Shown here: in pieces, positions 7,898 through 32,989 of the stretch
Position numbering within the stretch: position 1 is the first letter of the stretch
Layout: every line of letters starts with the position of its first letter
NCBI GenBank assembly: GCA_032718475.1
Contig: JAUCBJ010007937.1
Span: 26,865-90,864, forward strand
Direction: 5' to 3'
DNA: 64,000 bases
From: Nemertoderma westbladi
Taxonomy: Eukaryota; Animalia; Xenacoelomorpha
The notes under the pieces: model-generated
The model's database searches: none
Seen by the model: the letters and a program-made list of their open reading frames with translations, nothing else
Told to the model about the DNA's origin: nothing
Translations under genes and position numbers: made by a program

Positions 7898-8191
7898 TAA
7901 TTGTTTGTGTTAATTTTGAGTGATTTTTCATGGTTGAAGAGTAAAATCCACAAATAGTTACTGCATTATATATAAAAAACGAAGAAAATAATTTAAATAG
8001 TAATAATAATCTTTCAACATTAATTTCTTAATAAAGGTAATTTCTGAAGGGGTTTGGGAACTGAATGTTTTTCAACTGGATGTTGGCGATGTACTAGATG
8101 TAACGCTGGTTTTACGTAGCGATAACGAAGTTGACACTAGAGAATCGACCTTCACGCAAACAATACGAGTTGTTAATTCCCGTCCACCGGA

Positions 8192-9702
8192 TCTAACCCT
8201 AAGGTAAATGTTATTCTACCTAACTATAATGTAAATTATATTCTACCTAACTATTATGTAAATGTTATTCTACCTAACTATAATGTAAATGTTATTCTAC
8301 CTAACTATAATGTAAATGTTATTCTACCTAACTATAATGTAAATGTTATTCTACCTAACTATTATGTAAATGTTATTCTACCTAACTATAATGTAAATGT
8401 TATTCTACCTAACTATTATGTAAATGTTATTCTACCTAACTATAATGTAAATGTTATTCTACCTAACTATAATGTAAATGTTATTCTACCTAACTATAAT
8501 GTAAGTGTTATTCTACCTAACTATAATGTAAATGTTATTCTACCTAACTATAATGTAAGTGTTATTCTACCTAACTATAATGTAAATGTTATTCTACCTA
8601 ACTATAATGTAAATGTTATTCTACCTAACTATAATGTAAATGTTATTCTACCTAACTATAATGTAAGTGTTATTCTACCTAACTATAATGTAAATGTTAT
8701 TCTACCTAACTATAATGTAAGTGTTATTCTACCTAACTATAATGTAAATGTTATTCTACCTAGCTATAATGTAAATGTTATTCTACGTTACTATAATGTA
8801 AATTATATTCTACCTAACTATTATGTAAATGTTATTCTACCTAACTATAATGTAAATGTTATTCTACCTAACTATAATGTAAATGTTATTCTACCTAACT
8901 ATAATGTAAATGTTATTCTACCTAACTATTATGTAAATGTTATTCTACCTAACTATAATGTAAATGTTATTCTACCTAACTATAATGTAAATGTTATTCT
9001 ACCTAACTATAATGTAAGTGTTATTCTACGTAACTATAATGTAAATGTTATTCTACCTAACTATTATGTAAATGTTATTCTACCTAACTATAATGTAAAT
9101 GTTATTCTACCTAACTATAATGTAAATGTTATTCTACCTAACTATAATGTAAATGTTATTCTACCTAACTATAATGTAAATGTTATTCTACCTAACTATA
9201 ATGTAAGTGTTATTCTACCTAACTATAATGTAAGTGTTATTCTACCTAACTATAATGTAAATGTTATTCTACCTAACTATAATGTAAGTGTTATTCTACG
9301 TAACTATAATGTAAATGTTATTCTACCTAACTATTATGTAAATGTTATTCTACCTAACTATAATGTAAATGTTATTCTACCTAACTATAATGTAAATGTT
9401 ATTCTACCTAACTATAATGTAAATGTTATTCTACCTAACTATAATGTAAATGTTATTCTACCTAACTATTATGTAAATGTTATTCTACCTAACTATAATG
9501 TAATTGTTATTCTACCTAACTATAATGTAAGTGTTATTCTACCTAACTATAATGTAAATGAAATTCTGCCTAACTACCTAACTATAATGTAAATGTTATT
9601 CTACCTAACTATATATCACGACTAACTCTACCTATCTAACACGAGTGGCAGGGATGGGGAAACCCAACAAATGGGAGGGCCGCACATGGCGGCTAAAACT
9701 GG
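8192..9702 (+). mobile_element. Possible non-autonomous Helitron carrying the 27-bp array
   Basis: A|TC at 8191/8192; 3' hairpin GCCGC-ACATG-GCGGC (9679-9693), then CTGG|T (CTRR|T) at 9699-9703. Confidence 0.4.
8205..9612. repeat. 27-bp satellite (TAATGTAAATGTTATTCTACCTAACTA), ~52 copies
   Basis: Period 27 (e.g. 8281 to 8308), highly homogeneous. Confidence 0.97.
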
Positions 9703-11816: not shown

Positions 11817-12346
11817 TGTGACGGAATCCAGGAGGGATCCCGATTTATCCGGTATTTAGTTCACGCGTCCCCGCCGTGTATAAAGAGTGAATGAAAGTAA
11901 AATGAGTTCTGAAGTTCGGTGTATAATAATAGAGGTATAAGATATAGATATATTGTATAGTATATGGAAGGCGGGATACGGTAACTAAAAGTCCCGTGCT
12001 CCCCTATCTAAACTAATTAACCTATGCTAGCACTACTGCACTGAGATAACTGAATTACTGATATTGGGTTACTGGTTATATTGCACGGTTGGCCTGATTA
12101 CTACCTAATCGATGCCTTGCCCCCCTCTGATTGGTTGATACCCTTGTTGGCGCCCTTTGGAGTGTTCCCGTTCACTCCACCTATTCTCTCTGGGTTAGGG
12201 GTTTGGCCCCTGACCCTCTATTGTGTGCTTCCTTCCCATTCTTATTGGGATGGCACGAGTTGGTTAATTATCCAATCTCGTGGCTCCCAATATTGCTTAT
12301 CGGCTTATAACTTTATGGGGTGTTAGCGGGATTGAATAAGCTAACA
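11817..12346 (-). repeat. 3' LTR of the Bel/Pao element
   Basis: Near-identical to 24663-25192; preceded on the minus strand by PPT GGGGGGGAG (12347-12355). Confidence 0.97.
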
Positions 12347-13060
12347 CTCCCCCCCATGCTATCTTCCCGGTAAGAAGATAGCATCAACCAAAAAAGTGCG
12401 CTACAATCCCGCTGGATCCCGATCTAGTATCGGGTGTGGGGTGGAATTCTTTTCTCTCGGAGTCGGCTTTCCAGGCCGCCCCCTATGGGTATGATAACGC
12501 TACCCTGTGTGCCTGGCGTCTCATGTCGGGCCGATCGCGCTCACCTCTCACGCAACTTTTGTTTCCCCAACACTTCCGCCCTATCTCTTCTTCACTCTCA
12601 CCCTAACTCTCTCACACTCGGACCTCCTCGTCCCTCACTCAGCCTCTTATTCTCCCCCCCCCACACTAGAATTGCGTCCGCACTCTCTCCGCACTCCGCA
12701 CTATTATTCCGTCCCTCAACCTCACTTCGACTGTCTCTTCCCTTCTGACGAATCTCCCCCCCCCCCTCTCGTGCCGTCGCACTCAAGAAGTGTGAAATTG
12801 TCTGGTGTCTCGTCCATAGTGCCATAGTCAGTTGTCCCCCAGTCCCAGTAGCTAATTGAGAAAGGTTGTATGACTATAGTACTTACTCCGAACGTATATA
12901 TATTTCTAGATTACTAATTACTACGTACGTACATACAAATTGCACTTATATGATTATTTTGCATTAATTGAATTTGTACTTAATAGTTCGTACATCCCAC
13001 GCGGCGCCTACCAGGCGTACCACGTCCAAGTCCCAGTCTCTCTCCCTCGACTCTGGGAAC

Positions 13061-15610
13061 CTATCTGTTCCTCCGGGGGTAGTTCCCCCTGGCGTCCTCT
13101 TCCCTGGGTCGTTTCTTGGTTATCACCGTTCCTCTGGCATCATCCGCTTTCTGCTTTCGGACCTTCGCCGCCACTTCCTTGCTGATCCCGGTCGTTGGCT
13201 CCTTGGGCGCTGGTGTTATTAGTGCCCGATATCGCTTCGCCGGTGGCCCCTCAGAGTGGCCCGGTTGTCTCCCTCTAGTGGCGTCCCATAGGATCATTTT
13301 CATTGCCTTTGGTACGTGCTCCGCCAAGAAATCCCTAAACTCCCTTCGGTTCTCTGGCGTCCACCTGTCCAGATACCTTTGCGTGTTCATCACTCCAGCG
13401 TACGACGCCGCCGTTGCTACCTCTTGGTAGGTAAACGGTAGCCTCCGCTTTATGATTTCCATGTGAGTCTCCTGATTGATAAGGAAGAAACCCCACTTGA
13501 ACTCCTGGGCCTTCATGCGCTGGCGCGTCATGGCCCCGACGTCGGCCCACTCCTCGAATCTTGTGAACTTCTCCTCGTCGTTCATCCAGTCGCACTCGCG
13601 CCCGTAGTGTCCCCGAAAGTGGCACTTTGGACATCGGTTATGCAACCGTGGACACGCCCCCATCCTGTGACTTGGTTCTCTGCAGTAGAGACAAAAGGTT
13701 CCCTGTTGGAACCGGTATAGGCAGCTGCTTTCCCGATGGGTCTGTCTCCCACAGTAGTCGCAGCCGAGTACCAATGTCTCCCGTCCCACCTCGTCTTTCG
13801 TCCCAAGCGATCTCCGCGGTCTGTGGAGTCGCTGGTAGGCGAACTTCTCTACGTTGGTCTCCCTGTCTACGTCGATCTCTCCGCCCCTCTCGGGCATCGT
13901 CTCCCCGAATACTATCCGTGGTGCCGTCCCCGGTTGCTCGCCCAACCTGATGGTGCTCCCCGCGAAATCCATCGCCGGCTCCTCGTGCACCCAGGTCCGC
14001 TTGCCGGATCTGTTCCAGAAGGCCCTCGCCCCACTGGCCGTCACCACCCTTCCGCCAACCCAGTCCGTGTCCGAGTGGCCTATCCTCTCGATGGGCGGCA
14101 TCTCTCCGAACTCGTCGTCGTCGTCCTCCTCTTCTGGTAGTGTCTCCAATCCCGGTATCCCGATGGATCCACTATGTCCCTTCCCGCCTTGGCTCTCGCC
14201 CGTAGCTCTCCATCCCTCTAGCTCCCTTAACTTCCTTGGCGGTTGGTCGCCCTCGGCGCCCGCTGGTATGGGCATCGTTCGCAACCCCGACGTCGACTGT
14301 TTCGGCGATCCCACCGTCCATCCCAATTCTCGCCCCAGAGACTCCCCCGAACTCCCTGATGAAGTCCAATGAAGCTCGTCTAGGCCCGCCTGTTCCTCGA
14401 AGCCGTAACTCTGTGTCCTGGCCTCCTCTTCCCTCTCCTCTGCTTCTATCCTCTCCCGTCTAGCGACTTCTTCCAGTCGCTTTGCTTCTCGTCTATCCGT
14501 CTCTAGCTGCTCCCATCTCTGATACGGTGTATCTGTCTCCCCGTCTACCAGATGTCGGCTGTTGTAATACACCGACTCGCCCTTCAGCCCCGGGTGGTCT
14601 ACCAGACCGTCAAAAGCCACTTTAAAGGCTCTCCTGTAGCTTAGGGGTGATCCCGATAACAGAAATGCCCCTGGTTCCCTCTCGATAATCACGGTCATGA
14701 ATAAGTTAAGCAAACTTATCATCATCCAGTCCTCCTGCAGGATATATCGCTTCTGATATACCTTTATCGCTCCCCTGCGGAACTGATATACCTCCTGCTT
14801 TCCCGGTCTCGCTCCCCACTTTAGCGAGTTCGCTAGTTCTGCTCCGTATTCTTCCCTAAACTTCCCCCAGTCCATCGGTTTGTGGCACACGAGCCCCAAT
14901 AATTGGCCCATCGCCACCGCCCCGCATTGGCCTGTGTTTTCGACTACCCCCAATCCATCCGGTGCCGTCATAGCCATAAAGACTTTCTGCATATCCAGGA
15001 GGTTGGTGGCGTCCGGACCGATGATCCTCTCCGCGTCCTCGCGAATCGCCGATCCCACTTTCGTCGTCGACTTCTCTCTTACTAAGACTTGTACCGCTTT
15101 CGGTAATCGGTCTAATTTCGGCCCGTCCTTCTTCCCATACGTCCCTAGGTCGAATAAGAAGATGTCCCCATTTGGCGCGGCCAAATGTAGGAGTATGGTC
15201 CTGGCCGACCCTGCCATTCCTCGTCTCGAACCCGCTTCGTCTTCCACGGTTCCCTCGTCATCTAGGATCATATATCCTCCTCTGTTGACGGACTCTATGA
15301 ATCTCTTCCAGTCCTTCCTCGGTGATTCCCTCAGGTATTTCGGAATCCCGAACTTCGCCTCGTCCCCTTTCACCACGTAATGGAAGTGTTGGAAAATCGC
15401 GTTGTCTAGCGACGGCGTCCCGTAGGTCCTGACCAGCCGCTGTTCGTGCATCTCTCTGAAGTGATCCTGCAGCGCTCGCGCCGCGTGACCCCTTTCCAAC
15501 CTCTCGTAGTATCCTCTCGTCTTCTCTTCCGGATGTCTCTCGGTGAAATCCACCAGTATTTCCTTTCCTCCTGACTCCGCCTTTCTCTTTCTGATCAACT
15601 TACTCGCCAT
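13061..15610 (-). CDS. Accessory ORF (849 aa): DEDD-type 3'-5' exonuclease-like domain, coiled coil and 3 CCHC zinc knuckles
   Basis: ILDDEG (ExoI D117/E119), LLHLA..IFLFDL, LP..V..L..KVGSAIRED (ExoII D192), LLDM, G..LLG..K, W, QKRYILQED (ExoIII-like); then CDYCGRQTHRESSC, CLYCREPSHRMGAC, CPKCHFRGHYGREC. No signal peptide or TM helix, so not env. Confidence 0.8.
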   Translation of the reverse strand: MASKLIRKRKAESGGKEILVDFTERHPEEKTRGYYERLERGHAARALQDHFREMHEQRLVRTYGTPSLDNAIFQHFHYVVKGDEAKFGIPKYLRESPRKDWKRFIESVNRGGYMILDDEGTVEDEAGSRRGMAGSARTILLHLAAPNGDIFLFDLGTYGKKDGPKLDRLPKAVQVLVREKSTTKVGSAIREDAERIIGPDATNLLDMQKVFMAMTAPDGLGVVENTGQCGAVAMGQLLGLVCHKPMDWGKFREEYGAELANSLKWGARPGKQEVYQFRRGAIKVYQKRYILQEDWMMISLLNLFMTVIIEREPGAFLLSGSPLSYRRAFKVAFDGLVDHPGLKGESVYYNSRHLVDGETDTPYQRWEQLETDRREAKRLEEVARRERIEAEEREEEARTQSYGFEEQAGLDELHWTSSGSSGESLGRELGWTVGSPKQSTSGLRTMPIPAGAEGDQPPRKLRELEGWRATGESQGGKGHSGSIGIPGLETLPEEEDDDDEFGEMPPIERIGHSDTDWVGGRVVTASGARAFWNRSGKRTWVHEEPAMDFAGSTIRLGEQPGTAPRIVFGETMPERGGEIDVDRETNVEKFAYQRLHRPRRSLGTKDEVGRETLVLGCDYCGRQTHRESSCLYRFQQGTFCLYCREPSHRMGACPRLHNRCPKCHFRGHYGRECDWMNDEEKFTRFEEWADVGAMTRQRMKAQEFKWGFFLINQETHMEIIKRRLPFTYQEVATAASYAGVMNTQRYLDRWTPENRREFRDFLAEHVPKAMKMILWDATRGRQPGHSEGPPAKRYRALITPAPKEPTTGISKEVAAKVRKQKADDARGTVITKKRPREEDARGNYPRRNR

Positions 15611-16044
15611 TCCGAATGTTCACTCGCTCACCTGCAAGGTGGTGCCTTACCAAGGCGCAATACAGATGAGTGATGTATCTAGGATGTTCTGTACAGTTCG
15701 ATAATGGCCTATTTCCTACTTAACTGCGCCTTTAACCTAAATTATTCCTAATTAATTTTGAAGCTAGTAAATGAGCGTAATTTACAATTTCTGTCCGTTA
15801 CTAACTAACGGTACTTACGTACCCTCTAACTAACTCTCTAACTGGCGGTACTACGTACCTCCTAACTAACTAACTAACTAGGTACTACGTACCTTCTTAC
15901 TAACTCTCTGCCTACTAACTGCGTACCTACCATGTACTATTTTTTTTATTTTATTTTATTATTTTGTTTGTGGGAAGGGCGTCTCGCCCTCAATCCCACC
16001 CCCTCAGTCCAAAACTTGGACGACTAAACTTTCCTCTAACTTTG

Positions 16045-19000
16045 CTAAGGTGCCCCTTCCAATAGACAGTATTTACCTACAGCTCTCCTGTAAGTTTTTC
16101 TGTCCTTCGCACCTATCTTTCCACCTATCCGCACTTCTACCGATCGGACTCTTCCGTCCTCGTCGGAGTAGGTGCCTACAACTCTCGCCAACCGCCATTG
16201 GTTGTTGATGATAGTATCATCCGTGACGATTACGAGATCTCCTGCTCTCAACTCCCTGTTTGACTTCCTCCACTTGCTTCGTTTATGGAGCGTGGGTAGG
16301 TATTCTTCGACCCACCTCCTCCAATACTCTGCGCTTATTGCTTTAGCGACTTTCCAACTTTGGCGGGAGTGTATGTCGTCTGGGTCTACACCCCGCATAT
16401 CGATGGTCGCTGGCCTCTCCATTAGGAAATGGCTAGGCGTTAGCACGTCTAGCGACTCAGGGTCATCATTCTCCGGATATAGCGGTCTGCTATTAATGAT
16501 CCCCTCGCACTTCGCAAGTACTGTACGTAAGACGTCCTCGGTGACCATGTGGGTGTTCATTAGCTTCGTCATTAGACGCTTTGAACTGCCCACCAGTCTC
16601 TCGATGCATCCTAGTGTATGTGGTGCATACGGCGTCCTTCTCTCCCACTTTTCTTGTCGTCTCCTCATGGCTGCCTTGACTTCTTCTCCCTCCAAGGTGT
16701 CCAGGGCCTCTGCCATCTCACTCTCTGCGCCCACAAAGTTGGTGCCGTTGTCGCTGTATATCACTGCGATCGTCCCACCTTTGCGGTCCCTAAACCTTTC
16801 TAAGGCGTTAATGAACGCTGATGTGGTTGCATCTTGGGCGAGTTCTATCCCTACCGCCCGCGTATTGTTGCATACGAAGATAATGCCGTAGCGTTTCTCC
16901 ATGTGTCGCATCACTTTGATCTTTATCGGCCCGAACATGTCCACACCGCAATGCGTAAATGGCGGGTCGTGCTGTCTTACCCTACTCGCCGGTAGTGGCG
17001 CCATCTCCTGTACGGCTCGCTCCTTCTTCGCTCGTCGGCAGGTCTGGCACTGCCCCACTACCGCTTTAACCTTCTTCCTTAATTGTTTGACCCAATAGGT
17101 CCTCCTTATCTCTGTGAGGGTTCGGTTGGTGCCCCCGTGCAATATCGATTTGTGGGAGTCCCATATAATCTGGTGGACTATTGGCGATCCTGTAGGAATG
17201 ATGATGGGTTTCGGTGGTACGACTATGCTGTTGTTGTATCCCACCCTAGAATTCATTACTAGAATCCCGTCGTCATTGAGTTGTGGCGACAGCGTAATCA
17301 GCTCGCTGTCCCGTCGGAGGTGCTGTTGGTTACCGACGCGTTCCACCTCGTCACCGTAGTTCTTCCGTTGTTCATAGCGGATCACTGCCTTGGCCGCTCC
17401 TTCCAGATCTATGGTTGTCCTGATCTTCTTGCCCTTGCCGACTCCCGCAAGGAAATTCCCGAAGGCTCTCCAGTACGCCACTAGTTTCTTGGTCTTATAC
17501 CAACTAGAACTGTAGCTGAGGAGTTTATCCGTTGGGTTATCGCACAGTTCCCTTCCTGGTTGCACGTCCCTAATCTCCCTCACCATCTGGGAGTATATCT
17601 CTTCTCCATCTGAATCTCCCTCTTCTCCTTCTGATACTACTTCCGAGCCCGGGTCCACCTTCCTCATCGGCGGCCAGGCCTCCCTATCGCTCAGAAATTG
17701 TGGCCCATGTTGCCACAATACTTCCTTCTTCAGGAAAGTGTGGCGTTCCACGCCCCTCGACAGCAAGTCCGCTGGGTTCTCGTCTGTTGGGCAGTAGTGC
17801 CACCTTTCCAGTTCTGTGCTCGCCCTTATTTCGTCCACTCTATTCGCGACGAATATCGGGTATCTCGTCCTTTCGTTGTATAGCCAACCAAGCACTACCA
17901 TGGAGTCCGTCCAGTAGTGTGTCTCCACTATGTTGGGAATAGTATCCACTAGGTAGGCTGTGGCTCTTACTCCTAGTCTCGCAGCTGTCAATTCTAACTT
18001 GGGAACTGATGCTGAATCTGGCGGCGTTGACTTTGCTTTGCTAAAGGCTAGCCTTGGCTTATGAGCCCCCTCTCGTTCTACTAAGTAGAGTGCCGCTCCG
18101 TACGCTTCCAACGACGCGTCGGAGAACATGTGTAGGTCCAGATTCGTCATGTTCCCATCCGGGAAATACACCCTTGGCATGTTGTATGTTCCCATCTTCT
18201 CCAAGTTTCCTGTCCACTTGCTCCACTGTTTCTTGATTTCCTCTGGTACCTCTACGTCCCACTCATCTTTCAATTTGTATACTCTCTTGAGTATCTGTTT
18301 CCCCGTGACTAATAATGGGGATGCTAGGCCTAGGGGATCGTATATCCTTGCTATATACGATACATAGCCCCTCTTCGTGTGGATGTCTGCGCCCTCCTGG
18401 CTCAGCTGATACTTCAGTTCGTCTGTCTCTCTATCCCACACGATTCCCAATGCCTTCTGCTGGGATTCCGTTCTCTTAATCGCCATGTCCTGCCCTTTGG
18501 CTGTTGTGGGATTATCCATGGTCGATTCTGGTTTCCTGTCCTCTATGGCTTTGATAAATTCTTCCGAACTGGATTGGAATTTGGTCAGGTTAAAGCCGGA
18601 TCCTTTTAGGATGTCGCGAACCTCGCGCCCTGTATCCAGTATCTCCTTAACCGTATTTCCAGACTCCATTCCGTCGTCTACGTAGAAGCCGCGTCGAATC
18701 ATATCGACGGCCCTACTGCTGTATCTATCTTCCTTCCCCTTTACTGTGTCTCTCACTGCCATAGTCGTCATAAATGAAGACGACTTGGCCCCCATGTTCT
18801 GTACTATCATCTTATATGCTGGTATTATCGGCGGTTCTTCTTCGCCGTTATACCATAAGAAGCGTTGACTGTCGCTATCTTCTTCCGTTACACGGACTTG
18901 GTTGAACATGCCTTCTATGTCACACGTGAAGGCGTGTTTCCCATTTCGAAATCTAAGTAACACCTCTATGCCCGAATTGTAAATGTTTGGGCCTTCTAAC

Positions 19001-21012
19001 AGGTAGTCGTTTAAGCACTTTCCATCGGTCTTTGCCGATGCGTCGACTACCATCCTTAGTTTACCTTTCTTTGGATCTAAAGCCACGTGCAGTGGCAGGT
19101 AATATGTTCTATCCGTGTTCGGCTCGTCGACCGGTAACTCCACGGCCCATCCTTTCTCGACGTACTTCTTAATTGTTCTGTGGATGTACTCATTCTTCTC
19201 GGGGCTCCGTTTTAGTGTTTGTTTCAGTTTGCGGAGTCTCGTGAGTACCATCCCCCTATTGTCGGGCAGCGTTATCTTCGGTAGTTTCCATACCATTCCT
19301 ATAGTATACCATCCCTCATCGCACGTCATTGATTCCTCCACGCTTTGTAGTGCCTGTTTGTCTTCTACCGAGGTCCCGACCCCGGTTTCTTTCAGTCCCT
19401 CGAAATCTTGTCTGAGCAGTCTTTTGAGCTGCTCCTCTGCTCCCTCATCACCCATTTCCTGCATTGTCCCCGCGAACATGCATCCTGATGTCTCCGACAT
19501 CCTAAATGGTATCTTGCTCTTGATTGGACCACTCAGCGTCCACCCGAATGGTGTTAATATGGCCACCGGGTCACTCTGCTTGTCTTCACCGAAGACCGTT
19601 TGCATTCTTTCGTGGGCCGTTGGGCAGTCCATACCTACTATGATGGATACCTTCCTAACGTCCACGTCTGGGATTGAGAAGTCAATGTTGTCCAGGAATT
19701 TATACTGCTCGACCTCGATGTTGGTTGGCCGCCTGGCATTGATATTAATTGACTCTATCACTTGAATGGGGTCGATGGTTGCCCCATAGTCGCATCCCGG
19801 TGCCACTGCTGCAATTGCGCACCGTCCTGTTCTCATCTCCAGGATCTCATCTTTACTAGAGATGGTTGTTACCGCCATTCTGCTTGGCCTCGTTCTCAAT
19901 CCTATCTCCTCGGCCACCCATTCCTCGACTAATGTGAAGGCAGCTCCACTATCAACCAGCATTAGTGTTGTTACTGATCGATTGCCTTCCCCGATCACTC
20001 GTACTGGTACTACTCCAAGTAGCACCGTTCCTCTTTTCTTCGCCCCTACTGTGCTCGTCGCCATCGTTTGGCCTCTCCTTTGGCCAAATTTCATTGGCCT
20101 CTCCTTGCACTCCCTTGCTCTATGTCCACTCATTACACATCGCGAGCAGATTTTATTGCTGAACGCATAATCTATCTGATCTTGCCTAGGTAGCGCCTGC
20201 CAGTACCTGCAGTTCATAGTTTGATGAGGCGCATTTGCGTGTAGCTGGCATTTGCTCTTTGGGTCGTAGCCCTCTTTATACAGTGCATTGCGTATCGCAG
20301 TTGCGTTCGTACCAAAGTCCCTACTATTCTTATTGTTTGGGTTTTGCCTATTGGACGTACTGGGGTTATGTTTATTCGTGTTATTATTGTTTCCCTGTCC
20401 GTTCCATGATGTTGTCTTATCCTCGGCTAGCTGTGGACTTGCAGTCCCCTGCGTCGCTGCATATGGCAATGATTGCCTGAGTCTCGGTAATGCGTTCGAT
20501 GTGTTGTGCTCTGGTTTCGGTCTATGGTAGTCTGTCTTCGGTCCCTTTCCCAGGCTGTCTTCGCTATAGACTGGGTCAGTTATTAGTTCAGCCTCGTAGT
20601 TTAAGAAGTTTGACATTTCTTCTAAACCCGGTTCCGCACCCTTCTTATCTCGAGTGGAGAAGGCAATTTTCCTCCATTTGTTGCGCAGCCAGTTTGGTAG
20701 TGCCTGCGCTATCTTGGTGATGTTGTTGGACGCATTGAGCTCGTACGGCGCGTCTAGCGTCTTCAGCACGATTAGCGCCTTTTCGACTTTGTTAGCGAAC
20801 GTCTTAATGCTAACGGGATTATCCTGTAGGCCACCCGATGTTATGCCTCTCAGCGTCTGCCTGATGATCTTGGCCGGGTGCCCGTATTCCCTATCCAGTG
20901 CCCGCCATGCTGTCGTGAAGCCGCCCTCTATTCCTTGATATTGCCTCACGATGTCGTATGCTGGGCCTCCCGTGTACACTTGTAGATACTTTAGGCACTC
21001 CGCCTGCGTCAA
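16045..21012 (-). CDS. pol: Bel/Pao Gag(C-term)-Pol polyprotein
   Basis: Gag core and Zn knuckles (CSRCVMSGHRAREC), protease LVDSGA, RT (CDIEGMF, YVDD), RNase H FSDAS, integrase HHCC plus GVDMFGP/SDNGTNF/ERLV, and Pao C-terminal WRRWVEEYL..R.KW. Confidence 0.97.
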   Translation of the reverse strand: MTQAECLKYLQVYTGGPAYDIVRQYQGIEGGFTTAWRALDREYGHPAKIIRQTLRGITSGGLQDNPVSIKTFANKVEKALIVLKTLDAPYELNASNNITKIAQALPNWLRNKWRKIAFSTRDKKGAEPGLEEMSNFLNYEAELITDPVYSEDSLGKGPKTDYHRPKPEHNTSNALPRLRQSLPYAATQGTASPQLAEDKTTSWNGQGNNNNTNKHNPSTSNRQNPNNKNSRDFGTNATAIRNALYKEGYDPKSKCQLHANAPHQTMNCRYWQALPRQDQIDYAFSNKICSRCVMSGHRARECKERPMKFGQRRGQTMATSTVGAKKRGTVLLGVVPVRVIGEGNRSVTTLMLVDSGAAFTLVEEWVAEEIGLRTRPSRMAVTTISSKDEILEMRTGRCAIAAVAPGCDYGATIDPIQVIESININARRPTNIEVEQYKFLDNIDFSIPDVDVRKVSIIVGMDCPTAHERMQTVFGEDKQSDPVAILTPFGWTLSGPIKSKIPFRMSETSGCMFAGTMQEMGDEGAEEQLKRLLRQDFEGLKETGVGTSVEDKQALQSVEESMTCDEGWYTIGMVWKLPKITLPDNRGMVLTRLRKLKQTLKRSPEKNEYIHRTIKKYVEKGWAVELPVDEPNTDRTYYLPLHVALDPKKGKLRMVVDASAKTDGKCLNDYLLEGPNIYNSGIEVLLRFRNGKHAFTCDIEGMFNQVRVTEEDSDSQRFLWYNGEEEPPIIPAYKMIVQNMGAKSSSFMTTMAVRDTVKGKEDRYSSRAVDMIRRGFYVDDGMESGNTVKEILDTGREVRDILKGSGFNLTKFQSSSEEFIKAIEDRKPESTMDNPTTAKGQDMAIKRTESQQKALGIVWDRETDELKYQLSQEGADIHTKRGYVSYIARIYDPLGLASPLLVTGKQILKRVYKLKDEWDVEVPEEIKKQWSKWTGNLEKMGTYNMPRVYFPDGNMTNLDLHMFSDASLEAYGAALYLVEREGAHKPRLAFSKAKSTPPDSASVPKLELTAARLGVRATAYLVDTIPNIVETHYWTDSMVVLGWLYNERTRYPIFVANRVDEIRASTELERWHYCPTDENPADLLSRGVERHTFLKKEVLWQHGPQFLSDREAWPPMRKVDPGSEVVSEGEEGDSDGEEIYSQMVREIRDVQPGRELCDNPTDKLLSYSSSWYKTKKLVAYWRAFGNFLAGVGKGKKIRTTIDLEGAAKAVIRYEQRKNYGDEVERVGNQQHLRRDSELITLSPQLNDDGILVMNSRVGYNNSIVVPPKPIIIPTGSPIVHQIIWDSHKSILHGGTNRTLTEIRRTYWVKQLRKKVKAVVGQCQTCRRAKKERAVQEMAPLPASRVRQHDPPFTHCGVDMFGPIKIKVMRHMEKRYGIIFVCNNTRAVGIELAQDATTSAFINALERFRDRKGGTIAVIYSDNGTNFVGAESEMAEALDTLEGEEVKAAMRRRQEKWERRTPYAPHTLGCIERLVGSSKRLMTKLMNTHMVTEDVLRTVLAKCEGIINSRPLYPENDDPESLDVLTPSHFLMERPATIDMRGVDPDDIHSRQSWKVAKAISAEYWRRWVEEYLPTLHKRSKWRKSNRELRAGDLVIVTDDTIINNQWRLARVVGTYSDEDGRVRSVEVRIGGKIGAKDRKTYRRAVGKYCLLEGAP

Positions 21013-24000
21013 GTTTTTGTTAGTATTTCGTTACTATACATGCGCCGAAACTGTAGATATTCTTCCGGCCTGCTCCCATCGAATTTGAATGGTTCCACGG
21101 GTGGTAACTCGATCCTCGTTTTCAACGCATCGATCAACGTGGCCATCCCCATCGCCTGCGCTTCCAATGGATTCGATGGGTTCTGCATAGTTTCTCCTGT
21201 CTGGTGCGTTCCGTCTGTCCTATTTCTTGACTTTCTCTGGCTTGGGTATGTCATCGGGGGTAGCGGCCCCCTCCATATGTCTGTATCACACGATCTATTC
21301 TCATCCAAGGGTCTCGTTGTTCTTGCCCCTATCGGGGTATATTGTTGATATTGTGATGGGGGAATGTCACCCTGTCCCCCCCCCACCGGTATGTTTGGTA
21401 CTGGGGTTGATGTTAATATGTTGGGGCCCATGCACCTATCCGCAATAATTCCCCCCTCCCCTGGGTATATGTTATGTCCCTGCATGCTGTAGTCATACTG
21501 CTGTGCTGGTACCGGTATAGGCCTATCAGCTTCTGGCCTACTCGCCGGTATGTATTCCGCGACTTCCGGGTTTAATCCCGTTGTCCACGCCATCCTATCG
21601 CCTACATTGCCTCTCTCAGTATGGCCTATGGTATGTGCAGTAAGGCCTACAGTATGTCCTACAGTCTGCATGTGTCGCTCGGGATCGAAGTTTATTCTTC
21701 TCGAATAATCCTCCCCGCGGCTACCGTATTCTCGATCGATAGGTGTATTCCGTCGGAAAGTTTCTCTTCGACCCCCCTCTCTACTGTCCTCATCTTCGTA
21801 CCGGTACATCGCGTACCCCTCTCTCGGCGCGTAGTGCGCCTCGCCGGGTCGCATCTCTCCGGGGCGACGGCAATCTCCCGGAGTCCGACCCCACTGACTC
21901 TCCGTTCTCATCTCAACTACCGACGGCTCGCTATCCATCCTCGCTCTTCTATCGTTCGCGGCGATACCTCTACTACTCTTCTCTTCTTCTCCTTTCAGTG
22001 GAGTATTCCCGCTCGTGAGATCTCTCGTCGACCTCCCGGTTAAACCCCACTGTTCTTCTTCCCTCTTCTGATCGGGCTCGACGCTTCGTCCGCCCTCTTA
22101 CGACGTCAACCTGTCTCTCTCTGCTCGGTCGCACGCCGCTGGGGATACTCGCAACCCCCCTATTACTTTCCGTCGCCGGTTGTTGCGGTTCACCTATTTC
22201 GGCCCGCGCACCATCCGCTGACGGCTGTGGGACACTCTCTGCCCCCCCCCCCCCCTTTCGCCGCTAACTCGCTGTTGTGGGGTTCTCGTAGCCCCCCCCC
22301 CCCCCCCCACTCGCCACATCTAACTTCGCTACTCCTCACCCCGCTACTATATCCCTCTCCAGTCGACACATCAAGCCTACCGCGGTCGGGTCTATTCACC
22401 CCCGCCTCTCCCTCTGCTATTGCGTGGCCTACCAGGCCCTCTACTCCCTGCCTACCAACTATGTGGCCTACCAGGCCCTCGCTGGGTCTACCTAACCCAG
22501 CCACTCCCTGCCTACCAACTACGTGGCCTACCAGGCCCTCGCTGGGTCTACCTAACCCAGCTATTCCCTGCCTACCAACTACGTGGCCTACCAGGCCCTC
22601 GCTGGGTCTACCTAACCCAGCTATTCCCTGCCTACCAACTACGTGGCCTACCAGGTCCTCGTCTGTCTGGCCACACACGCCCGACGTGTTTATATTAATA
22701 GCACCCGTATTGGAAACGGAATTAATTTGTTCGTTCGAAATAAAATCATTTGAATTATCTTGCGCGACTACACCATCTGAATTATTTTGTAAATTCGGGC
22801 TCGCTGAATTATTTAAGTTATTTAGATTATTTTGTGTTATTGCATTACTTAAATTATTTTCTAAGTTCGGATTTGGGTTATTACTTTGATTAATTGGATT
22901 ATTTTGCGTAGCTACATTAATATTAGAATTATTTTCTACATTAATATTAGGAATGTTCTGATTTAAATTTAAATTACTACCACTAGGTAAAGTATTTCCT
23001 GCAATAAAGGTTTGATTAGAATTGTCCCATACGGTACTATTAATATTAACCACGTCTACTGTACCATTATCATTATTACCCCCCCCCCCCCCCCCCGCCC
23101 GTACGGTCACACCAGTTTTGAGTCTGTCGTGCGGTCCCTGTAAGTGGGGTATTAATAAATGTATCCACGGCCCCCGGCTCCTCAAAAATACTCGAGCCAG
23201 CCTCGCTCTCAGACTCCCCCATTTGCGCCAGTTCCACCTCACGCGCGTGTATAGCTTCATACTCTACGAGTTTGTCTCGCTGTTTCTCCAATTCTCTTCG
23301 CTCACGCTCCGCTTTTGCTATTTTATCCATAGCCTCCCTCTCGGTCTGCTTGGCCAATTCCATCTCTCTCCTAATCCCCTCCCTTCGCCTCGCCTCACGC
23401 GCTCTACGTTCACTCTCCTCCCTCACTTCACGCTCTCTGCGTTCACTTTTCTCCTTCGCTTCACGCTTCTCGCGTTCGCTTTTCTCTCTCGCCACACGCT
23501 CTTCTTGTTCCTTCAACTCTATTTCATCATACTCCCTGAGGCTCCTCACGGCCCTTTCGGCCCTCTCTCTTACCTCTCCAATCGACGCCATTTCCCTCTC
23601 CAGCAGCACTCTCCCTTCCTCTAGCCGTCTACCTACTTCTCTATTACCTTGCACTGCTAGATTGAGACAGTACCTAGCGTCTATCTCTCTCACCCGTCTT
23701 TCTTTTGCGGAGGATGTAGCAGACTTATCGTTTGTGGAGGATTCCCTCCGCCTTCCCGATCTACTAGCTTTCCCCCTCCTCCCGGAACTCCCTCCGACCG
23801 ACGAGACCGAATCCGCGGGGTCAGCCTCGGATTCGCCCTCCTCAGGTCTGTTCCAACCCACTAATTTTACTCCCCGGGCATCGACCAAGTATGGCCCTAT
23901 GTACACTGACGCTACGCTAGGTTCCATACTCCCACATTCCCATAGTTCAAATAGTTCGCTGGCAACCCCTTTTGCTCTCTCCTCGGCTAGTTCTCTCTGC

Positions 24001-24602
24001 CCAAAACGCATTAGGTAATTAAAGTGTCTATCCGAATCACCTAGTCGTTTCCTCAGTCTCACCTCGTCTATCGTTTTCCCTTTTCTGGCCTCCTCTAGTA
24101 GTCTCCGGGTCGCGTTGTAGGCCCGTCGAAGTTGCTCAGAAACCCCGACGTCCTCGTCGCCGACCTCTCGTCCGTCTCTCCGGGTTCGACGTCGTACCGG
24201 CGGCCCCACCGTCGCCGTTTCGGCGGGCCGCTCGTCGCCCTCGGCCTGTGGCTGGCCGGCGGCATCGGTACCGATATCTCGTTCGCCTCTCTGCGTCCGG
24301 GGCCGCACCGTCGGCCCCACCTTCGCCGTTTCGGCGGGCCGCTCGTCGCCCTCGGCCTGTGGCTGGCCGGCGACACCGGTGCGTCGACCCCCGTCCCGTG
24401 TCGACTCGTCTCCGTCTCCCTCCGTCCCGCTCTCTCTTTCTCTCGGTTCGAGCTCGGGTTCCAGGCCCCCCTCGTCCTGAACTGCCGGATGACCCGTTAC
24501 CGATGGGTCCGGCGTTGTGGGCCTGTATCGCCTGGTTGCGGCCTCGCGGATCGTTAGGTCTTCGTCTGGGGTCCGCGTCGGTGTCTCGCCCGATTGACTC
24601 AT
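21009..24602 (-). pseudogene. gag: Very long N-terminal Gag region, split by frame changes (ORFs 23076-24602, 22190-23260, 21009-21938)
   Basis: The last piece ends FKFDGSRPEEYLQFRRMY..TKT*; one extra A in the A5 run at ~21015 restores TKNLTQAECLKYL into the pol ORF. Other breaks lie at or near C-homopolymers (23079-23096, 22242-22288) and at ~21975-22100. Confidence 0.75.
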
Positions 24603-24652
24603 CTCGCTGGTGATTGGTGGCTGATGGTTTGGCTAGCTAGGGCAGCGGTTGG

Positions 24653-24662
24653 TTTTAGTTAC
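24653..24662 (-). promoter_or_regulatory. Non-tRNA primer-binding site candidate (GTAACTAAAA)
   Basis: Lies immediately after the 5' LTR CA and lacks TGG; exact reverse complement of LTR segment 24827-24836. Confidence 0.5.
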
Positions 24663-25192
24663 TGTGACGGGATCCAGGAGGGATCCCGATTTATCCGGTA
24701 TTTAGTTCACGCGTCCCCGCCGTGTATAAAGAGTGAATGAAAGTGAAATGAGTTCTGAAGTTCGGTGTATAATAATAGAGGTATAAGATATAGATATATT
24801 GTATAGTATATGGAAGGCGGGATACGGTAACTAAAAGTCCCGTGCTCCCCTATCTAAACTAATTAACCTATGCTAGCACTACTGCACTGAGATAACTGAA
24901 TTACTGATATTGGGTTATTGGTTATATTGCACGGTTGGCCTGATTACTACCTAATCGATGCCTTGCCCCCCTCTGATTGGTTGATACCCTTGTTGGCGCC
25001 CTTTGGAGTGTTCCCGTTCACTCCACCTATTCTCTCTGGGTTAGGGGTTTGGCCCCTGACCCTCTATTGTGTGCTTCCTTCCCATTCTTATTGGGATGGC
25101 ACGAGTTGGTTAATTATCCAATCTCGTGGCTCCCAATATTGCTTATCGGCTTATAACTTTATGGGGTGTTAGCGGGATTGAATAAGCTAACA
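24663..25192 (-). repeat. 5' LTR of the Bel/Pao element
   Basis: Near-identical to 11817-12346; the gag ATG is about 60 nt downstream (24602). Confidence 0.97.
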
Positions 25193-25286: not shown

Positions 25287-27717
25287 TGATGATGATGATC
25301 GGCTTGCACTAGGGTGCAGTGCCGGCGGCCCCAGAAACATAGCGCCCCCAGATCTTGCGGTCAGCCATACAATTTCCTAATTCATTCCTGTTCTCAAGTC
25401 CTGTGTCCTTGAGCAGGCGTTTGAGGAAAGTCATTGGCTGTCCACCACGTCTATTCTCGCCAGCAGGCTGCCACAGCACAAGGTTGTGTACAGGTTGATC
25501 CTGCCGGCGGAAACAGTGCCCAGCAAGCATTAGACGGCGTTTCTGCAGGGTGATGCTAGGTCTTGGCAATGAGATGTTACCATATTTATATAACACCTCA
25601 TTGCTTATGTGTGCATCATATGCTATGTTGTGCACCCGGCGAAGCATCCTGGTGTATGTGCCATCCAAGGACCTGGTGTCTTCAGCAGTTAGAGCCCAGC
25701 ATGGGCTGCCATAGAGCAGCACAGGCTCCACTGCTGCACGGAAAAGGCGTACCTTTAAAGAGCATGAGATGTCAGAGCTCTTCCAGATCCTGGATAGCTT
25801 GTGGATGGCGGACCAGGCTTTCCCTTTGCGAATTCGGAGATCTTCAGCAGACCTCCGAACCCATGATCCAAGGTAGCAGAAGTCGTTCACATGACTTACC
25901 AGTCCATCCAGCGATTGAATGTTATCCCGATCAATTTTCTGCTGATCTGAATCCATGTTTACTGTCAGAATTTTGGTCTTTGTGCTATTCACAAAGAGGC
26001 CAACACTAGATGCAGCCTCCTCTAAGCTAGATAGCAGCTTCTGTGCTCCTTCTAATGTCTCTGACAGTAAACCAAGGTCATCTGCAAAGTCAAGGTCGGT
26101 TAGATGTTCTGCTGGGGAACCACGTCTACGGCTACCTGATGGTGGAGATATTTCCACCCCATCAGCTTCATGAAGATCGAGTGATGTCCGCAGCACATAG
26201 TCCACCACAATAATGAAGAGGAACGGGGCTAATGTGTCTCCTTGAAGGACACCCCAGAGAACCTCAAATGGGTCTGTGTCTCCATCAGTAGTGGATACAA
26301 AGGTCGTGGAACCGTCATATACTGATCTGATTGCATTAATGATCTCATTGGGGATCCCATATGCCTGAAGAATTTGGAACATGCGTGGGCGTGACACGGA
26401 ATCGAAGGCCTTGAAGAAATCCACAAATATGACAGCCAAATGTCTGTCTTTCTTTGTAGAAACCTCTTCAATAATCCTTCTAAGTGCCAGAATGGGTTCA
26501 AAGGTACCTCTACCTTTTCGAAACCCATTTTGATTCCCACGCAAGAGTCTTTCTACAGGATCCCTAATGCGATTCAGCATTATTCTGTTGAATAATTTAG
26601 CTGCAATTGAGATTAGACTAATTCCACGATATGAACCAAAATAGGAGAGGTTGCCCTTCTTTGGAACGGGTGTTAGCCGATTAGTCTTCAGTTCTTGTGG
26701 TGCAATCTTAGTGCGGTACATTTCTGCTAGGATAGGGTGGGCTAGTTGAAGGCATTCTCTGATCTTAAAGACCTCGGGAGGCACATCATCAACACCAGAT
26801 GCCCTATTGGTTTTAATGTCATTCGAAGCAGTTAAGACCTCTTCGAATGTTATGTCACCAATTGGGATGTCTGAGAGTATTGTGTGTGACACAGGCTTTA
26901 CAGTGAAATCGTCAGTCAGTTCTCGATCATTATTTAGCAATTTCTCGAAATGAGACTTCCAGCCTGCCAAGCGGTCGGCTGGAGAATCAGCCTTCACCTT
27001 GGCAGTTGGTCGGCTTTTTCTTCCAGAGAGCAGGTTGATTGCTTGCCAGGCTTCAGCAGATTTCCTGCTTTCGTCAGCAGCATTGATAGTATCAACCTGC
27101 TCGCTGATAAGCTTTGCTTTATTAATCGAGTATTGCTTGTTTAGAGATTTCACTGAAGCTTTCACTGCATTTTTTGCAGAAGTTGTACGTCGGCTACGAT
27201 ACTCTCTTTGGGCTTTGTTCAATGCCTCTCGCAGGTCTAGAATGCGCTGGTCTGCCCAGGGGATCTTCTTCAACTTCCGTGGCTTTAGAGGAACAGTTTT
27301 CTTTGCAGCTGACTTTACTGCTGCAGCAAACTGGGTATATTTCTCACAGTGGTTCATTTCTTCATTTATGAGACTGGAATATCTATTTGTAACCTCAATT
27401 GTAAAGTTATCCTTTATAATGGGGTTTTTATCCAAGGTAGACCAGTCATGATGTGGGGTGGACTTTTTAAGACCCTTGTTTGCACGAAGGCTTAATTTGG
27501 TCTTTCCCATAACCAATCGATGGTCAGTCTGAAATGTCCGCACTGTGAGAGAAGAGCAGTCAATTATTGATCCTCTGTATTTCTTACGGAAGATGAGGTG
27601 GTCTATCTGGGACTTATGACCACTGGGTCCCACATGGGTGTACAGCTTTCCAGGTCGTTTTTGGAAATTTGTATTGGCCGAAAACAGCTCATTTGCCAGA
27701 ATTTCTCATTTCCCAGA
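25287..27717 (-). mobile_element. 5'-truncated RTE-clade LINE, copy 1 (RT ORF 25309-27633 uninterrupted)
   Basis: End of APE (QIDHLI, TDHR), RT (FVDFFKAFDSV, GVLQGDTLAP, DFADD) and a (CAT)n tail. Confidence 0.95.
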
Positions 27718-27892
27718 ATATAATTTCTTACATTTAATTATTGAAATATATTGGAGGGGAATCTCGACGAATTAACAATACCAATTATCAACATCACGTG
27801 ACATACTATAGCACTTATTTCTTCTTAAAGATTGGCGAAACCTACAAAAAAGATTTCAATGAACAACGGACTTACCCTACCTACCCATTAGT

Positions 27893-29880: not shown

Positions 29881-30086
29881 GTCCTCTATCCTCTATATTA
29901 CATAATTATAATATGTTAATCTCAGGTATAAGCTCAACCATCAAGTATCAGCAGATTTGGGCTGGGCTGGGCTAGGCCTACCTACCGGTACACTGCAGTA
30001 CGGTACTATAATGGAATATACTATAAGTCTAAGTAATGAAATTTCTTGTTAAACAATATGTATTTTATATATAATTTCTTACATTT

Positions 30087-32515
30087 GATGATGATGATCG
30101 GCTTGCACTAGGGTGCAGTGCCGGCGGCCCCAGAAACATAGCGCCCCCAGATCTTGCGTCAGCCATACAATTTCCTAATTCATTCCTGTTCTCAAGTCCT
30201 GTGTCCTTGAGCAGGCGTTTGAGGAAAGTCATTGGCTGTCCACCACGTCTATTCTCGCCAGCAGGCTGCCACAGCACAAGGTTGTGTACAGGTTGATCCT
30301 GCCGGTGGAAACAGTGCCCAGCAAGCATTAGACGGCGTTTCTGCAGGGTGATGCTAGGTCTTGGCAATGAGATGTTACCATATTTATATAACACCTCATT
30401 GCTTATGTGTGCATCATATGCTATGTTGTGCACCCGGCGAAGCATCCTGGTGTATGTGCCATCCAAGGACCTGGTGTCTTCAGCAGTTAGAGCCCAGCAT
30501 GTGCTGCCATAGAGCAGCACAGGCTCCACTGCTGCACGGAAAAGGCGTACCTTTAAAGAGCATGAGATGTCAGAGCTCTTCCAGATCCTGGATAGCTTGT
30601 GGATGGCGGACCAGGCTTTCCCTCTGCGAATTCGGAGATCTTCAGCAGACCTCCGAACCCATGATCCAAGGTAGCAGAAGTCGTTCACATGACTTACCAG
30701 TCCATCCAGCGATTGAATGTTATCCCGATCAATTTTCTGCTGATCTGAATCCATGTTTACTGTCAGAATTTTGGTCTTTGTGCTATTCACAAAGAGGCCA
30801 ACACTAGATGCAGCCTCCTCTAAGCTAGATAGCAGCTTCTGTGCTCCTTCTAATGTCTCTGACAGTAAACCAAGGTCATCTGCAAAGTCAAGGTCGGTTA
30901 GATGTTCTGCTGGGGAACCACGTCTACGGCTACCTGATGGTGGAGATATTTCCACCCCATCAGCTTCATGAAGATCGAGTGATGTCCGCAGCACATAGTC
31001 CACCACAATAATGAAGAGGAACGGGGCTAATGTGTCTCCTTGAAGGACACCCCAGAGAACCTCAAATGGGCCTGTGTCTCCATCAGTAGTGGATACAAAG
31101 GTCGTGGAACCGTCATATACTGATCTGATTGCATTAATGATCTCATTGGGGATCCCATATGCCTGAAGAATTTGGAACATGCGTGGGCGTGACACGGAAT
31201 CGAAGGCCTTGAAGAAATCCACAAATATGACAGCCAAATGTCTGTCTTTCTTTGTAGAAACCTCTTCAATAATCCTTCTAAGTGCCAGAATGGGTTCAAA
31301 GGTACCTCTACCTTTTCGAAACCCATTTTGATTCCCACGCAAGAGTCTTTCTACAGGATCCCTAATGCGATTCAGCATTATTCTGTTGAATAATTTAGCT
31401 GCAATTGAGATTAGACTAATTCCACGACATGAACCAAAATAGGAGACGTTGCCCTTCTTTGGAACGGGTGTAAGCCGATTAGTCTTCAGTTCTTGTGGTG
31501 CAATCTTAGTGCGGTACATTTCTGCTAGGATAGGGTGGGCTAGTTGAAGGCATTCTCTGATCTTAAAGACCTCGGGAGGCACATCATCAACACCAGATGC
31601 CCTATTGGTTTTAATGTCATTCGAAGCAGTTAAGACCTCTTCGAATGTTATGTCACCAATTTGGATGTCTGAGAGTATTGTGTGTGACACAGGCTTTACA
31701 GTGAAATCGTCAGTCAGTTCTCGATCATTATTTAGCAATTTCTCGAAATGAGACTTCCAGCCTGCCAAGCGGTCGGCTGGAGAATCAGCCTTCACCTTGG
31801 CAGTTGGTCGGCTTTTTCTTCCAGAGAGCAGGTTGATTGCTTGCCAGGCTTCAGCAGATTTCCTGCTTTCGTCAGCAGCATTGATAGTATCAACCTGCTC
31901 GCTGATAAGCTTTGCTTTATTAATCGAGTATTGCTTGTTTAGAGATTTCACTGAAGCTTTCACTGCATTTTTTGCAGAAGTTGTACGTCGGCTACGATAC
32001 TCTCTTTGGGCTTTGTTCAATGCCTCTCGCAGGTCTAGAATGCGCTGGTCTGCCCAGGGGATCTTCTTCAACTTCCGTGGCTTTAGAGGAACAGTTTTCT
32101 TTGCAGCTGACTTTACTGCTGCAGCAAACTGGGTATATTTCTCACAGTGGTTCATTTCTTCATTTATGAGACTGGAATATCTATTTGTAACCTCAATTGT
32201 AAAGTTATCCTTTATAATGGGGTTTTTATCCAAGGTAGACCAGTCATGATGTGGGGTGGACTTTTTAAGACCCTTGTTTGCACGAAGGCTTAATTTGGTC
32301 TTTCCCATAACCAATCGATGGTCAGTCTGAAATGTCCGCACTGTGAGAGAAGAGCAGTCAATTATTGATCCTCTGTATTTCTTACGGAAGATGAGGTGGT
32401 CTATCTGGGACTTATGACCACTGGGTCCCACATGGGTGTACAGCTTTCCAGGTCGTTTTTGGAAATTTGTATTGGCCGAAAACAGCTCATTTGCCAGAAT
32501 TTCTCATTTCCCAGA
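30087..32515 (-). mobile_element. 5'-truncated RTE-clade LINE, copy 2, with 18-bp TSD
   Basis: Near-identical to copy 1; TSD ATATAATTTCTTACATTT at 30069-30086 and 32516-32533; 1-bp deletion near the 3' end. Confidence 0.95.
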
Positions 32516-32989
32516 ATATAATTTCTTACATTTAATTATTGAAATATATTGGAGGGGAATCTCGACGAATTAACAATACCAATTATCAACATCACGTGAC
32601 ATACTATAGCACTTATTTCTTCTTAAAGATTGGCGAAACCTACAAAAAAGATTTCAATGAACAACGGACTTACCCTACCTACCCATTAGTACTCCATACA
32701 TCAAGAAGTCTGTGCACATCTGTACACTCAACCAGAAAACCACATACATATTACACACCAGGGGTTATAATAATATGTGACGTGTCAAGTAGAAACGTAT
32801 GTTATCAGAAAAATCGAATATTTTTATGGTCGATTCTGGTAGAGAATTTGTCGGCCTATCTAGTGGTATATAACACTTATCTTCTATCATTTTCCATTTT
32901 GGAGTAATTTTACGAAAACTAAAGGGTAATCGTTCATAATTTATTCAAAATGAGTTCACAGTTCAAAACGACACCAGATATTCATTCAT

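Follow-up and report, generated by a model that had tools for sequence, protein, structure and literature searches.

Juno and Vesta belong to the Ty3/gypsy group. In these bdelloid elements, and in Athena/Terminon, Rodriguez et al. (2017; PMC5408684) described an RNase D-like DEDDy ORF3 of unknown function, and stated that such nucleases were previously unreported in retrotransposons. An opinion piece from 2019 counts the DnaQ-like domain among the accessory domains known from LTR elements (PMC6338049). Some Bel/Pao elements, such as Cer13 and Atlas, likewise carry extra coding sequence downstream of pol; there the extra gene is a phlebovirus-like fusion glycoprotein, whereas the ORF3 described here has a predicted nuclease fold and no membrane segment (PMC9094657).

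The window (the whole 64,000-nucleotide stretch of Nemertoderma westbladi DNA analyzed here) contains a Bel/Pao element whose third open reading frame, ORF3, occupies the position of env. We find that ORF3 is a genuine accessory gene, conserved in many Bel/Pao elements, and what we infer concerns its function. A DEDDy ORF3 in Bel/Pao, or an EXD2-like form with three zinc knuckles, was not found in our literature search (most subscription papers, Repbase, and GyDB were outside its scope), and a look-up of terms in PMC3118150, PMC2774666, and PMC8556966 found no exonuclease ORF of Bel/Pao. The original prediction knew of no description of the architecture; this stands for Bel/Pao as far as the search reached, but a DEDDy ORF3 in the env position is in print for bdelloids (PMC5408684).

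The Bel/Pao element and its third reading frame

The element spans 25192 to 11817 on the minus strand of the window, between a 5′ LTR (24663-25192) and a 3′ LTR (11817-12346) of 530 bp each, both TG...CA. The LTRs are identical at 527 of 530 positions and the 5-bp target site duplication ATTAA is present at both ends, in line with the nearly identical, duplication-bounded LTRs originally noted; a polypurine tract (12347-12360, minus strand) adjoins the 3′ LTR. The 5′ (gag) coding region (21009-24602, minus strand) lies in several overlapping frames and leads into a region (16045-21030, minus strand) that encodes the Gag C-terminus and the Pao pol: protease, RT (FYVDD), RNase H/Peptidase_A17, integrase, and DUF5641. 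The two Gag zinc knuckles (nt 20250 and 20148) lie ahead of the protease. The pol ORF (16045-20616) matches Peptidase_A17 with an E-value of 4e-40, together with integrase and DUF5641 (all Pfam), and its domain order, PR-RT-RH-IN, is of the Pao type. Because the 5′ part of the gag-pol coding region is split over several frames, this copy, although its LTRs are young, is unlikely to be autonomous; the split frames concern the autonomy of the copy, not the membership of the family in Bel/Pao.

ORF3 (13061-15610, minus strand) is an open, intact frame of 849 amino acids within the element's LTRs, placed between pol and the polypurine tract as originally described: it starts 434 nt past the pol stop and ends about 700 nt ahead of the tract. 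The 434-nt spacer (15611-16044, minus strand) contains a splice-site-like sequence at about 15632, either acceptor or donor, and we infer that ORF3 would be expressed from a separate, likely spliced, message. Searches with the single ORF3 sequence found no Pfam family, no PDB match with phmmer, and, in the first homolog search, no relative. An exhaustive search then yielded 74 proteins at E ≤ 0.001, almost all of which match by way of the knuckles, and our alignment comprises the query and 30 long proteins of those 74.

From its N-terminus, ORF3 consists of an exonuclease domain, a coiled helix, a disordered linker, three CCHC knuckles, a helical domain, and a basic tail. An AlphaFold2 model built from the 31 sequences has two confident modules, at about aa 96-336 and aa 613-765, joined by a low-confidence linker; the long helix (aa 362-401) and the acidic linker (aa 404-612), together at 13775-14527 (minus strand), are poorly conserved in the relatives. 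The three zinc knuckles (aa 617-673; 13592-13762, minus strand) each read CX2CX4HX4C, at aa 617-630, 640-653, and 660-673, and the alignment has 11 columns that are invariant in all 31 proteins, every one of them within the three knuckles. A conserved helical domain of no named family follows (aa 678-765; 13316-13579, minus strand), with the block FEEWAD..G..T..R..WGF (FEEWAD at aa 685, WGF at aa 706); the original prediction had seen the knuckles and this block in the same order. Basic patches resembling nuclear localization signals were noted by eye at both ends of the protein (aa 7-10, 791-795, and 832-836).

Env was considered as an identity for ORF3 and rejected, because no transmembrane segment is present (the peak 19-residue hydropathy is 1.32); a signal segment and a fusion-protein fold are likewise absent, and the predicted fold is that of a nuclease. 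The earlier view that the extra gene is not an env thus holds.

A separate observation concerns priming. A tRNA-type primer site is usual in Bel/Pao elements, and none is present directly past the 5′ LTR of the window element. The 10 nt at the primer-site position (24653-24662, minus strand) are not tRNA-like; they are perfectly complementary to LTR nt 357-366, a candidate self-primer inside the 5′ LTR (24827-24836, minus strand). Such a 10/10 complement was reached by 11 of 20,000 shuffles of the LTR and by 12 of 12,286 internal positions; in 10 tRNA-primed relatives the same complementarity extends to only 4-7 bases, over 103-599 nt. For an RNA starting at the LTR nt 357-366 site, the lowest-energy fold pairs the two segments with a probability of about 0.6, against 0.2-0.4 for other starts. 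Among the variants listed for family copies (40 of 45 rows), none falls at 24805-24843 or 24600-24679, whereas variants are dense on either side of the LTR block, and the sequences of several copies part immediately after the ninth base past the LTR. These features suggest that the window family may self-prime as Tf1 does. Tf1/sushi-type self-priming likewise involves bases directly past the 5′ LTR that pair with the LTR itself instead of a tRNA end; the accessible text of the source attributes that mechanism to no lineages other than Ty3/gypsy and Ty1/copia, whereas the window element is Bel/Pao (PMC6317226). No paper with a title on self-priming in Bel/Pao was found in our literature search. 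Since ORF3-bearing relatives use tRNA-type primer sites, self-priming and ORF3 are independent.

The exonuclease domain

An EXD2-like DEDDy 3′-5′ exonuclease domain, delimited by profiles, model, and residues, is assigned to aa 75-310 (14681-15388, minus strand). An N-terminal domain is common to most of the 30 aligned long relatives, and a profile of these relatives, with the window protein left out, matches ORF3 at aa 75-310 with an E-value of 2e-24. Compared with known proteins, the family profile finds human EXD2 (E = 9e-14), trypanosome RNase D (8e-8), WRN (6e-4), Mut-7 (3e-3), and Egalitarian (0.017); with a profile of the exonuclease only, EXD2 again comes first (4e-13) and WRN reaches only 0.6. 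The EXD2 match takes in the lead-in strand and helix ahead of ExoI. The Pfam exonuclease family itself matched 2 of 38 relatives, both below the cut-off.

The structural model agrees. A Foldseek search with the ORF3 model gave 25 chains at E ≤ 0.001, and the 22 listed are all of the DEDDy family, including RNase D, Nibbler, Egalitarian, Rrp6, and EXD2, so that this structural check came out in favor of the predicted fold. With sequence identity at 10-16%, modest scores are to be expected: the best E-value is 1e-5, and the TM-score over Nibbler is 0.58-0.63. The pLDDT over the exonuclease core is mostly 80-94, and the model places D117 and E119 on the first core strand and Y289 and E293 on a long C-terminal helix. 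In an Atlas feature search, the first named cluster was 3′-5′ exonuclease (0.93), with PF01612 on 34% of its members. On these profiles and models, we regard the prediction of a DnaQ/DEDDy exonuclease fold as secure.

All active-site positions are filled in ORF3, giving a DEDE-y set: D117 and E119 (nt 15254-15262), D192 (nt 15035-15037), and Y289 and E293 (nt 14732-14746, all minus strand). The active site of the window element is therefore predicted to be intact. The last acid is a glutamate (YILQE, aa 289-293) in place of aspartate, as in 5 of the 77 rows of our nuclease alignment; 33 of the 77 are DEDD-y. The DEDD motif reading of the original prediction is thus upheld for the fold and amended at the last acid. 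Its wider kinship with WRN, EXD, Mut-7, and RNase D is correct at the level of the DEDDy family, but the closest solved relative is EXD2 (human, 6k17), not Mut-7 or EXD1. The domain is EXD2-like rather than an EXD2 orthologue, because the N-terminal transmembrane anchor of EXD2 is absent; zinc knuckles stand in place of the EXD2 C-terminal region. Judging by best-match scores, the exonuclease domain was likely captured from an EXD2-like host gene.

Distribution, selection and loss of catalytic residues

Metagenome contigs scanned with a DNA pattern of the knuckle motif gave at least 120 loci, with flanks for 80; these are not independent host samples, since most belong to a small number of assemblies whose accession prefixes are similar. 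The family knuckle profile is matched by 115 of the 120 listed loci. A Pao-like pol lies upstream on the same strand in 34 of the 38 listed loci with at least 3500 nt upstream, and in none of the 38 is pol solely on the opposite strand; these counts answer the check, proposed originally, of how regularly ORF3 lies downstream of a Pao pol. Among the four exceptions (L022, L005, L012, and L056), L022 has a DUF5641 remnant upstream and the contig of L005 is filled by ORF3, leaving no room for pol. Peptidase_A17 was found in 11 of the 12 polyproteins scanned; in the twelfth (L051), integrase and DUF5641 were seen towards the 3′ end. The exonuclease domain is upstream of the knuckles in 44 of the 49 listed loci with room, and of the 55 exonuclease matches 44 are in one frame with the knuckles while 11 are split from them.

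The pols of these relatives share 26-34% identity with the window pol, and many have the non-canonical RT motif LVDD or LIDD. In the pol tree, the window element, the pair L079/L010, the pair L047/L059, and a large main group each sit on a long separate branch. ORF3 is thus securely identified as heritable cargo of many Bel/Pao elements. The gene is accessory: the term exonuclease occurs nowhere in the text of a survey of Bel/Pao elements that covered 62 genomes.

In the 20 elements that have both regions, distances in pol correlate with those in the exonuclease (rho 0.84; 0 of 2000 permutations), which shows joint inheritance and is not proof of functional co-evolution. For dN/dS, pairs were chosen as close neighbors on the tree, several with dS near saturation; the ratio is below 1 in all 13 exonuclease pairs (0.035-0.51), and 0.02-0.37 for the knuckle module (11 pairs computable). 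The family is well represented and diverse in the sequencing data of the host, with contigs over 30 of 30 element bins, ORF3 included, in two runs. Synonymous changes account for 13 of the 16 ORF3 differences listed between host-genome copies, where 22% would be expected (p = 1e-6); these differences come from the best-supported of about 2160 rows and are not a random sample. Some host-genome copies have deletions inside ORF3, with joints that skip 753-1856 nt. Overall, the comparison among copies that was originally proposed gives clear purifying selection on ORF3, and a host gene is excluded as the source of the signal because ORF3 lies inside LTR elements.

Not all family members retain the active site. 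Of the 77 rows in the nuclease alignment (74 distinct), 40 have four acids and the tyrosine, 24 lack the ExoI acids altogether, a further 10 are partial, and 3 are truncated. Twenty-one rows without the active site, which lack both of these acids or are kin of rows that do, form one dead-site clade (SH-aLRT 99, quick tree); in the pol tree, too, the dead-site elements are one clade (98), beside an intact-site clade (98). Exonuclease dN/dS in the dead clade is 0.035-0.51 over all 6 pairs, dead-site ORF3s adjoin long open pol frames, and the same tRNA-type primer site was seen by eye in intact-site and dead-site relatives. Because the dead clade stays under selection, the core conserved job of ORF3 is probably RNA binding, with cutting an extra function that roughly half of the family retains, the window element included; the invariant columns are confined to the knuckles while 24 of 77 rows are without both ExoI acids.

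Possible functions and comparison with known systems

Our best explanation, held tentatively, is that ORF3, a DEDDy domain likely from an EXD2-like host gene joined to three knuckles, binds short single-stranded RNA and blunts small-RNA silencing. The knuckles would hold the RNA and pass 3′ ends to the nuclease, as we suppose by analogy with trypanosome RNase D; an intact-site ORF3 might then trim guide RNAs that lack protection, or guide RNA precursors, too far back, and a dead-site ORF3 might bind and sequester guide RNAs without cutting, and either way host silencing of the element would be blunted. Trypanosome RNase D (TbRND) binds RNA through its CCHC domain, which also stimulates cleavage strongly, and guide RNAs are depleted when the enzyme is overexpressed (PMC7797062). 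Several points count against this explanation. No sequence feature points to small RNAs as the target, and the same observations are accounted for if ORF3 binds the RNA of the element itself. The 3′ end of mature piRNAs is methylated, which protects it from trimming of this kind, and the patches resembling nuclear localization signals could indicate a nuclear role. For bdelloid ORF3s, moreover, the accessible text of the published study gives no clear copy-number benefit or departure from neutrality (PMC5408684). By analogy, a counter-silencing role, one of the functions first proposed, is plausible. The broader claim, that a widespread ancient Bel/Pao group encodes its own small-RNA silencing suppressor, made of an EXD2-like nuclease and a new knuckle-helix RNA-binding module, with one lineage turned into a dead RNA trap, we consider somewhat unlikely.

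A cis-acting role is close to counter-silencing in our estimation, and also on the doubtful side: ORF3 would be an RNP factor for the element's genomic RNA (export, germ-line localization, 3′-end protection, or packaging), using its fold as an RNA-binding surface like that of Egalitarian, with catalysis optional. This would account for selection on the dead clade, and a protein adapted to the RNA of its own element would be expected to diverge along with pol, as ORF3 does. Egalitarian ranks near the top of the structural matches; it can bind localization signals, that of the I-factor included, without its catalytic residues (PMC13186709). Against it, 40 of 77 rows keep the four acids and the tyrosine over very deep divergence, which needs a use for catalysis.

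An aid to reverse transcription within the particle, by proofreading, by trimming primer or cDNA 3′ ends, or by removing RNA, is improbable. EXD2 works on DNA and RNA in a metal-dependent manner (PMC6648332), CCHC knuckles resemble nucleocapsid chaperones, the window family may self-prime, and the RT motif is non-canonical in many relatives, all of which would suit such an aid. However, ORF3 is separate from Gag-Pol, with no evident route into particles, and dead versions persist next to pol frames that are long and open. Of the functions raised originally, trimming of the primer and proofreading of RT fit poorly, since the same tRNA-type site occurs with or without catalysis and a whole clade is dead. 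We give still less credence to the idea that ORF3 clears by-products (stray cDNA, RNA-DNA hybrids, or dsRNA ends) that trigger innate sensing or decay. Some viruses do use DEDD nucleases in this way, and giant-virus nucleases are structurally similar (three matches at E ≤ 0.001), but these matches are weaker than the cellular ones, and selection on dead versions would be left unexplained. Both of these roles fit the dead clade worse than counter-silencing or a cis role. Finally, a neutral passenger or degenerate env is very improbable and was rejected: the internal deletions and split loci might suggest one, but broken copies are normal for old insertions, dN/dS is far below 1, the frames are open over deep divergence, and the hydropathy peak indicates no transmembrane segment.

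Among known proteins, EXD2 is the best sequence match of the ORF3 family, followed in the family profile by TbRND and then WRN. TbRND (7c42-7c4c) is the top structural match (E = 1e-5) and the second sequence match, and also has a DEDDy nuclease followed by CCHC knuckles; however, its four knuckles are close behind the nuclease, whereas the three of ORF3 follow a 300-aa linker and are joined by a further helical domain (PMC7797062), and the shared architecture is probably convergent. The exonuclease-homology domain of Egalitarian has the same fold as is predicted for ORF3 and binds RNA without catalysis, but Egalitarian is an adaptor protein of the host that binds BicD and has LOTUS-like domains, features not seen in ORF3 (PMC13186709).

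The bdelloid ORF3s are alike in being DEDDy proteins encoded by a third ORF past pol, in the env position, with the catalytic residues preserved apart from one D-to-E change and no membrane segment (PMC5408684). Compared by description, they differ in having the motif DEED and a host element outside Bel/Pao, against DEDE or DEDD in the Bel/Pao window family; the triple-knuckle fusion and the dead clade belong to the window family, and neither is reported for bdelloid ORF3 in the accessible text (PMC5408684). A nematode Cer element reportedly was once noted with an exonuclease-like domain, for which our literature search gave no support. DEDDy ORF3 cargo is thus known as a kind, while for its occurrence in Bel/Pao, its EXD2-like origin, the knuckle fusion, and the pseudo-enzyme clade we found no earlier report; a conserved protein family missed by Pfam is now added. 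To our knowledge, few animal retrotransposons encode proteins acting against host silencing.

Selection separates the two families as well: it is clear in the window family, whereas the bdelloid study, in its accessible text, gives no clear departure from neutrality (PMC5408684). The published DEDDy ORF3 case has neither a selection signal nor a natural control; the window family has both, in dozens of elements under purifying selection and in sister clades that share a scaffold and differ in whether the catalytic residues are present. Because these intact and dead sister clades exist, the role of a retrotransposon 3′-5′ nuclease, and its need for cutting, can be tested. If ORF3 does suppress silencing, then, together with the independent RNase D-like captures in bdelloids, 3′-end nucleases would be a recurrent counter-defense weapon of LTR retrotransposons.

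Variation in ORF3 and in the RT motif among relatives

The loci from metagenome contigs that match the knuckle motif pattern of ORF3 differ in the length and content of this frame. In four of them the stop-to-stop frame is far longer (1552 aa for the ORF3 of L051, 1592 aa in L005, 1328 aa in L015, and 1417 aa in L043), yet carries the same nuclease and knuckle modules; the additional sequence in these long frames has no Pfam match, and a Pfam match is likewise absent from the 5′ part of the L051 polyprotein. Two other loci, L047 and L059, are Pao-type elements with the knuckle motif in their ORF3; since no exonuclease domain is detectable in this ORF3, we suggest that its N-terminal module has been replaced or has diverged extremely.

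The RT catalytic motif is FYVDD in the Bel/Pao element of the window and YMDD in L010 and L079. It is LVDD, LIDD or IVDD, not YxDD, in the ORF3-bearing relatives L013, L018, L026, L028, L029, L031, L033, L036, L037, L042, L046, L053, L057, L059, L066, and L069.

Other elements and long frames in the window

Two tandem copies of a LINE-type RT region (25287-27892 and 30086-32690; 99.7% identical) directly adjoin the 5′ LTR of the Bel/Pao element, with a repeat-rich frame of 671 aa between them. A second LTR element, at 47208-51997, has identical 309-bp repeats and a 1199-aa frame with a knuckle and an integrase, in which an RT match is absent; in the middle there is an in-frame 12-bp tandem array (∼49785-50312). 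The window also contains an uninterrupted, apparently intronless frame of 1224 aa for a full ABC transporter (55092-58766; two membrane and two ATPase domains), and a 27-bp tandem array of ∼50 copies at 8058-9616, where one frame is open over 471 codons.

Splice-like site and priming of the Bel/Pao element

A splice-site-like sequence at ∼15632, 21 nt ahead of the ORF3 start, is compatible with either an acceptor or a donor; acceptor-like ends are found immediately ahead of the start codons in L010 and L079.

Directly after the 5′ LTR (24663..25192, minus strand), no tRNA-type primer site is present at 24653-24662. These 10 bases are complementary to 24827-24836, a conserved block within the LTR, and this complementarity makes the element's family within Bel/Pao a candidate for self-priming similar to that of Tf1.
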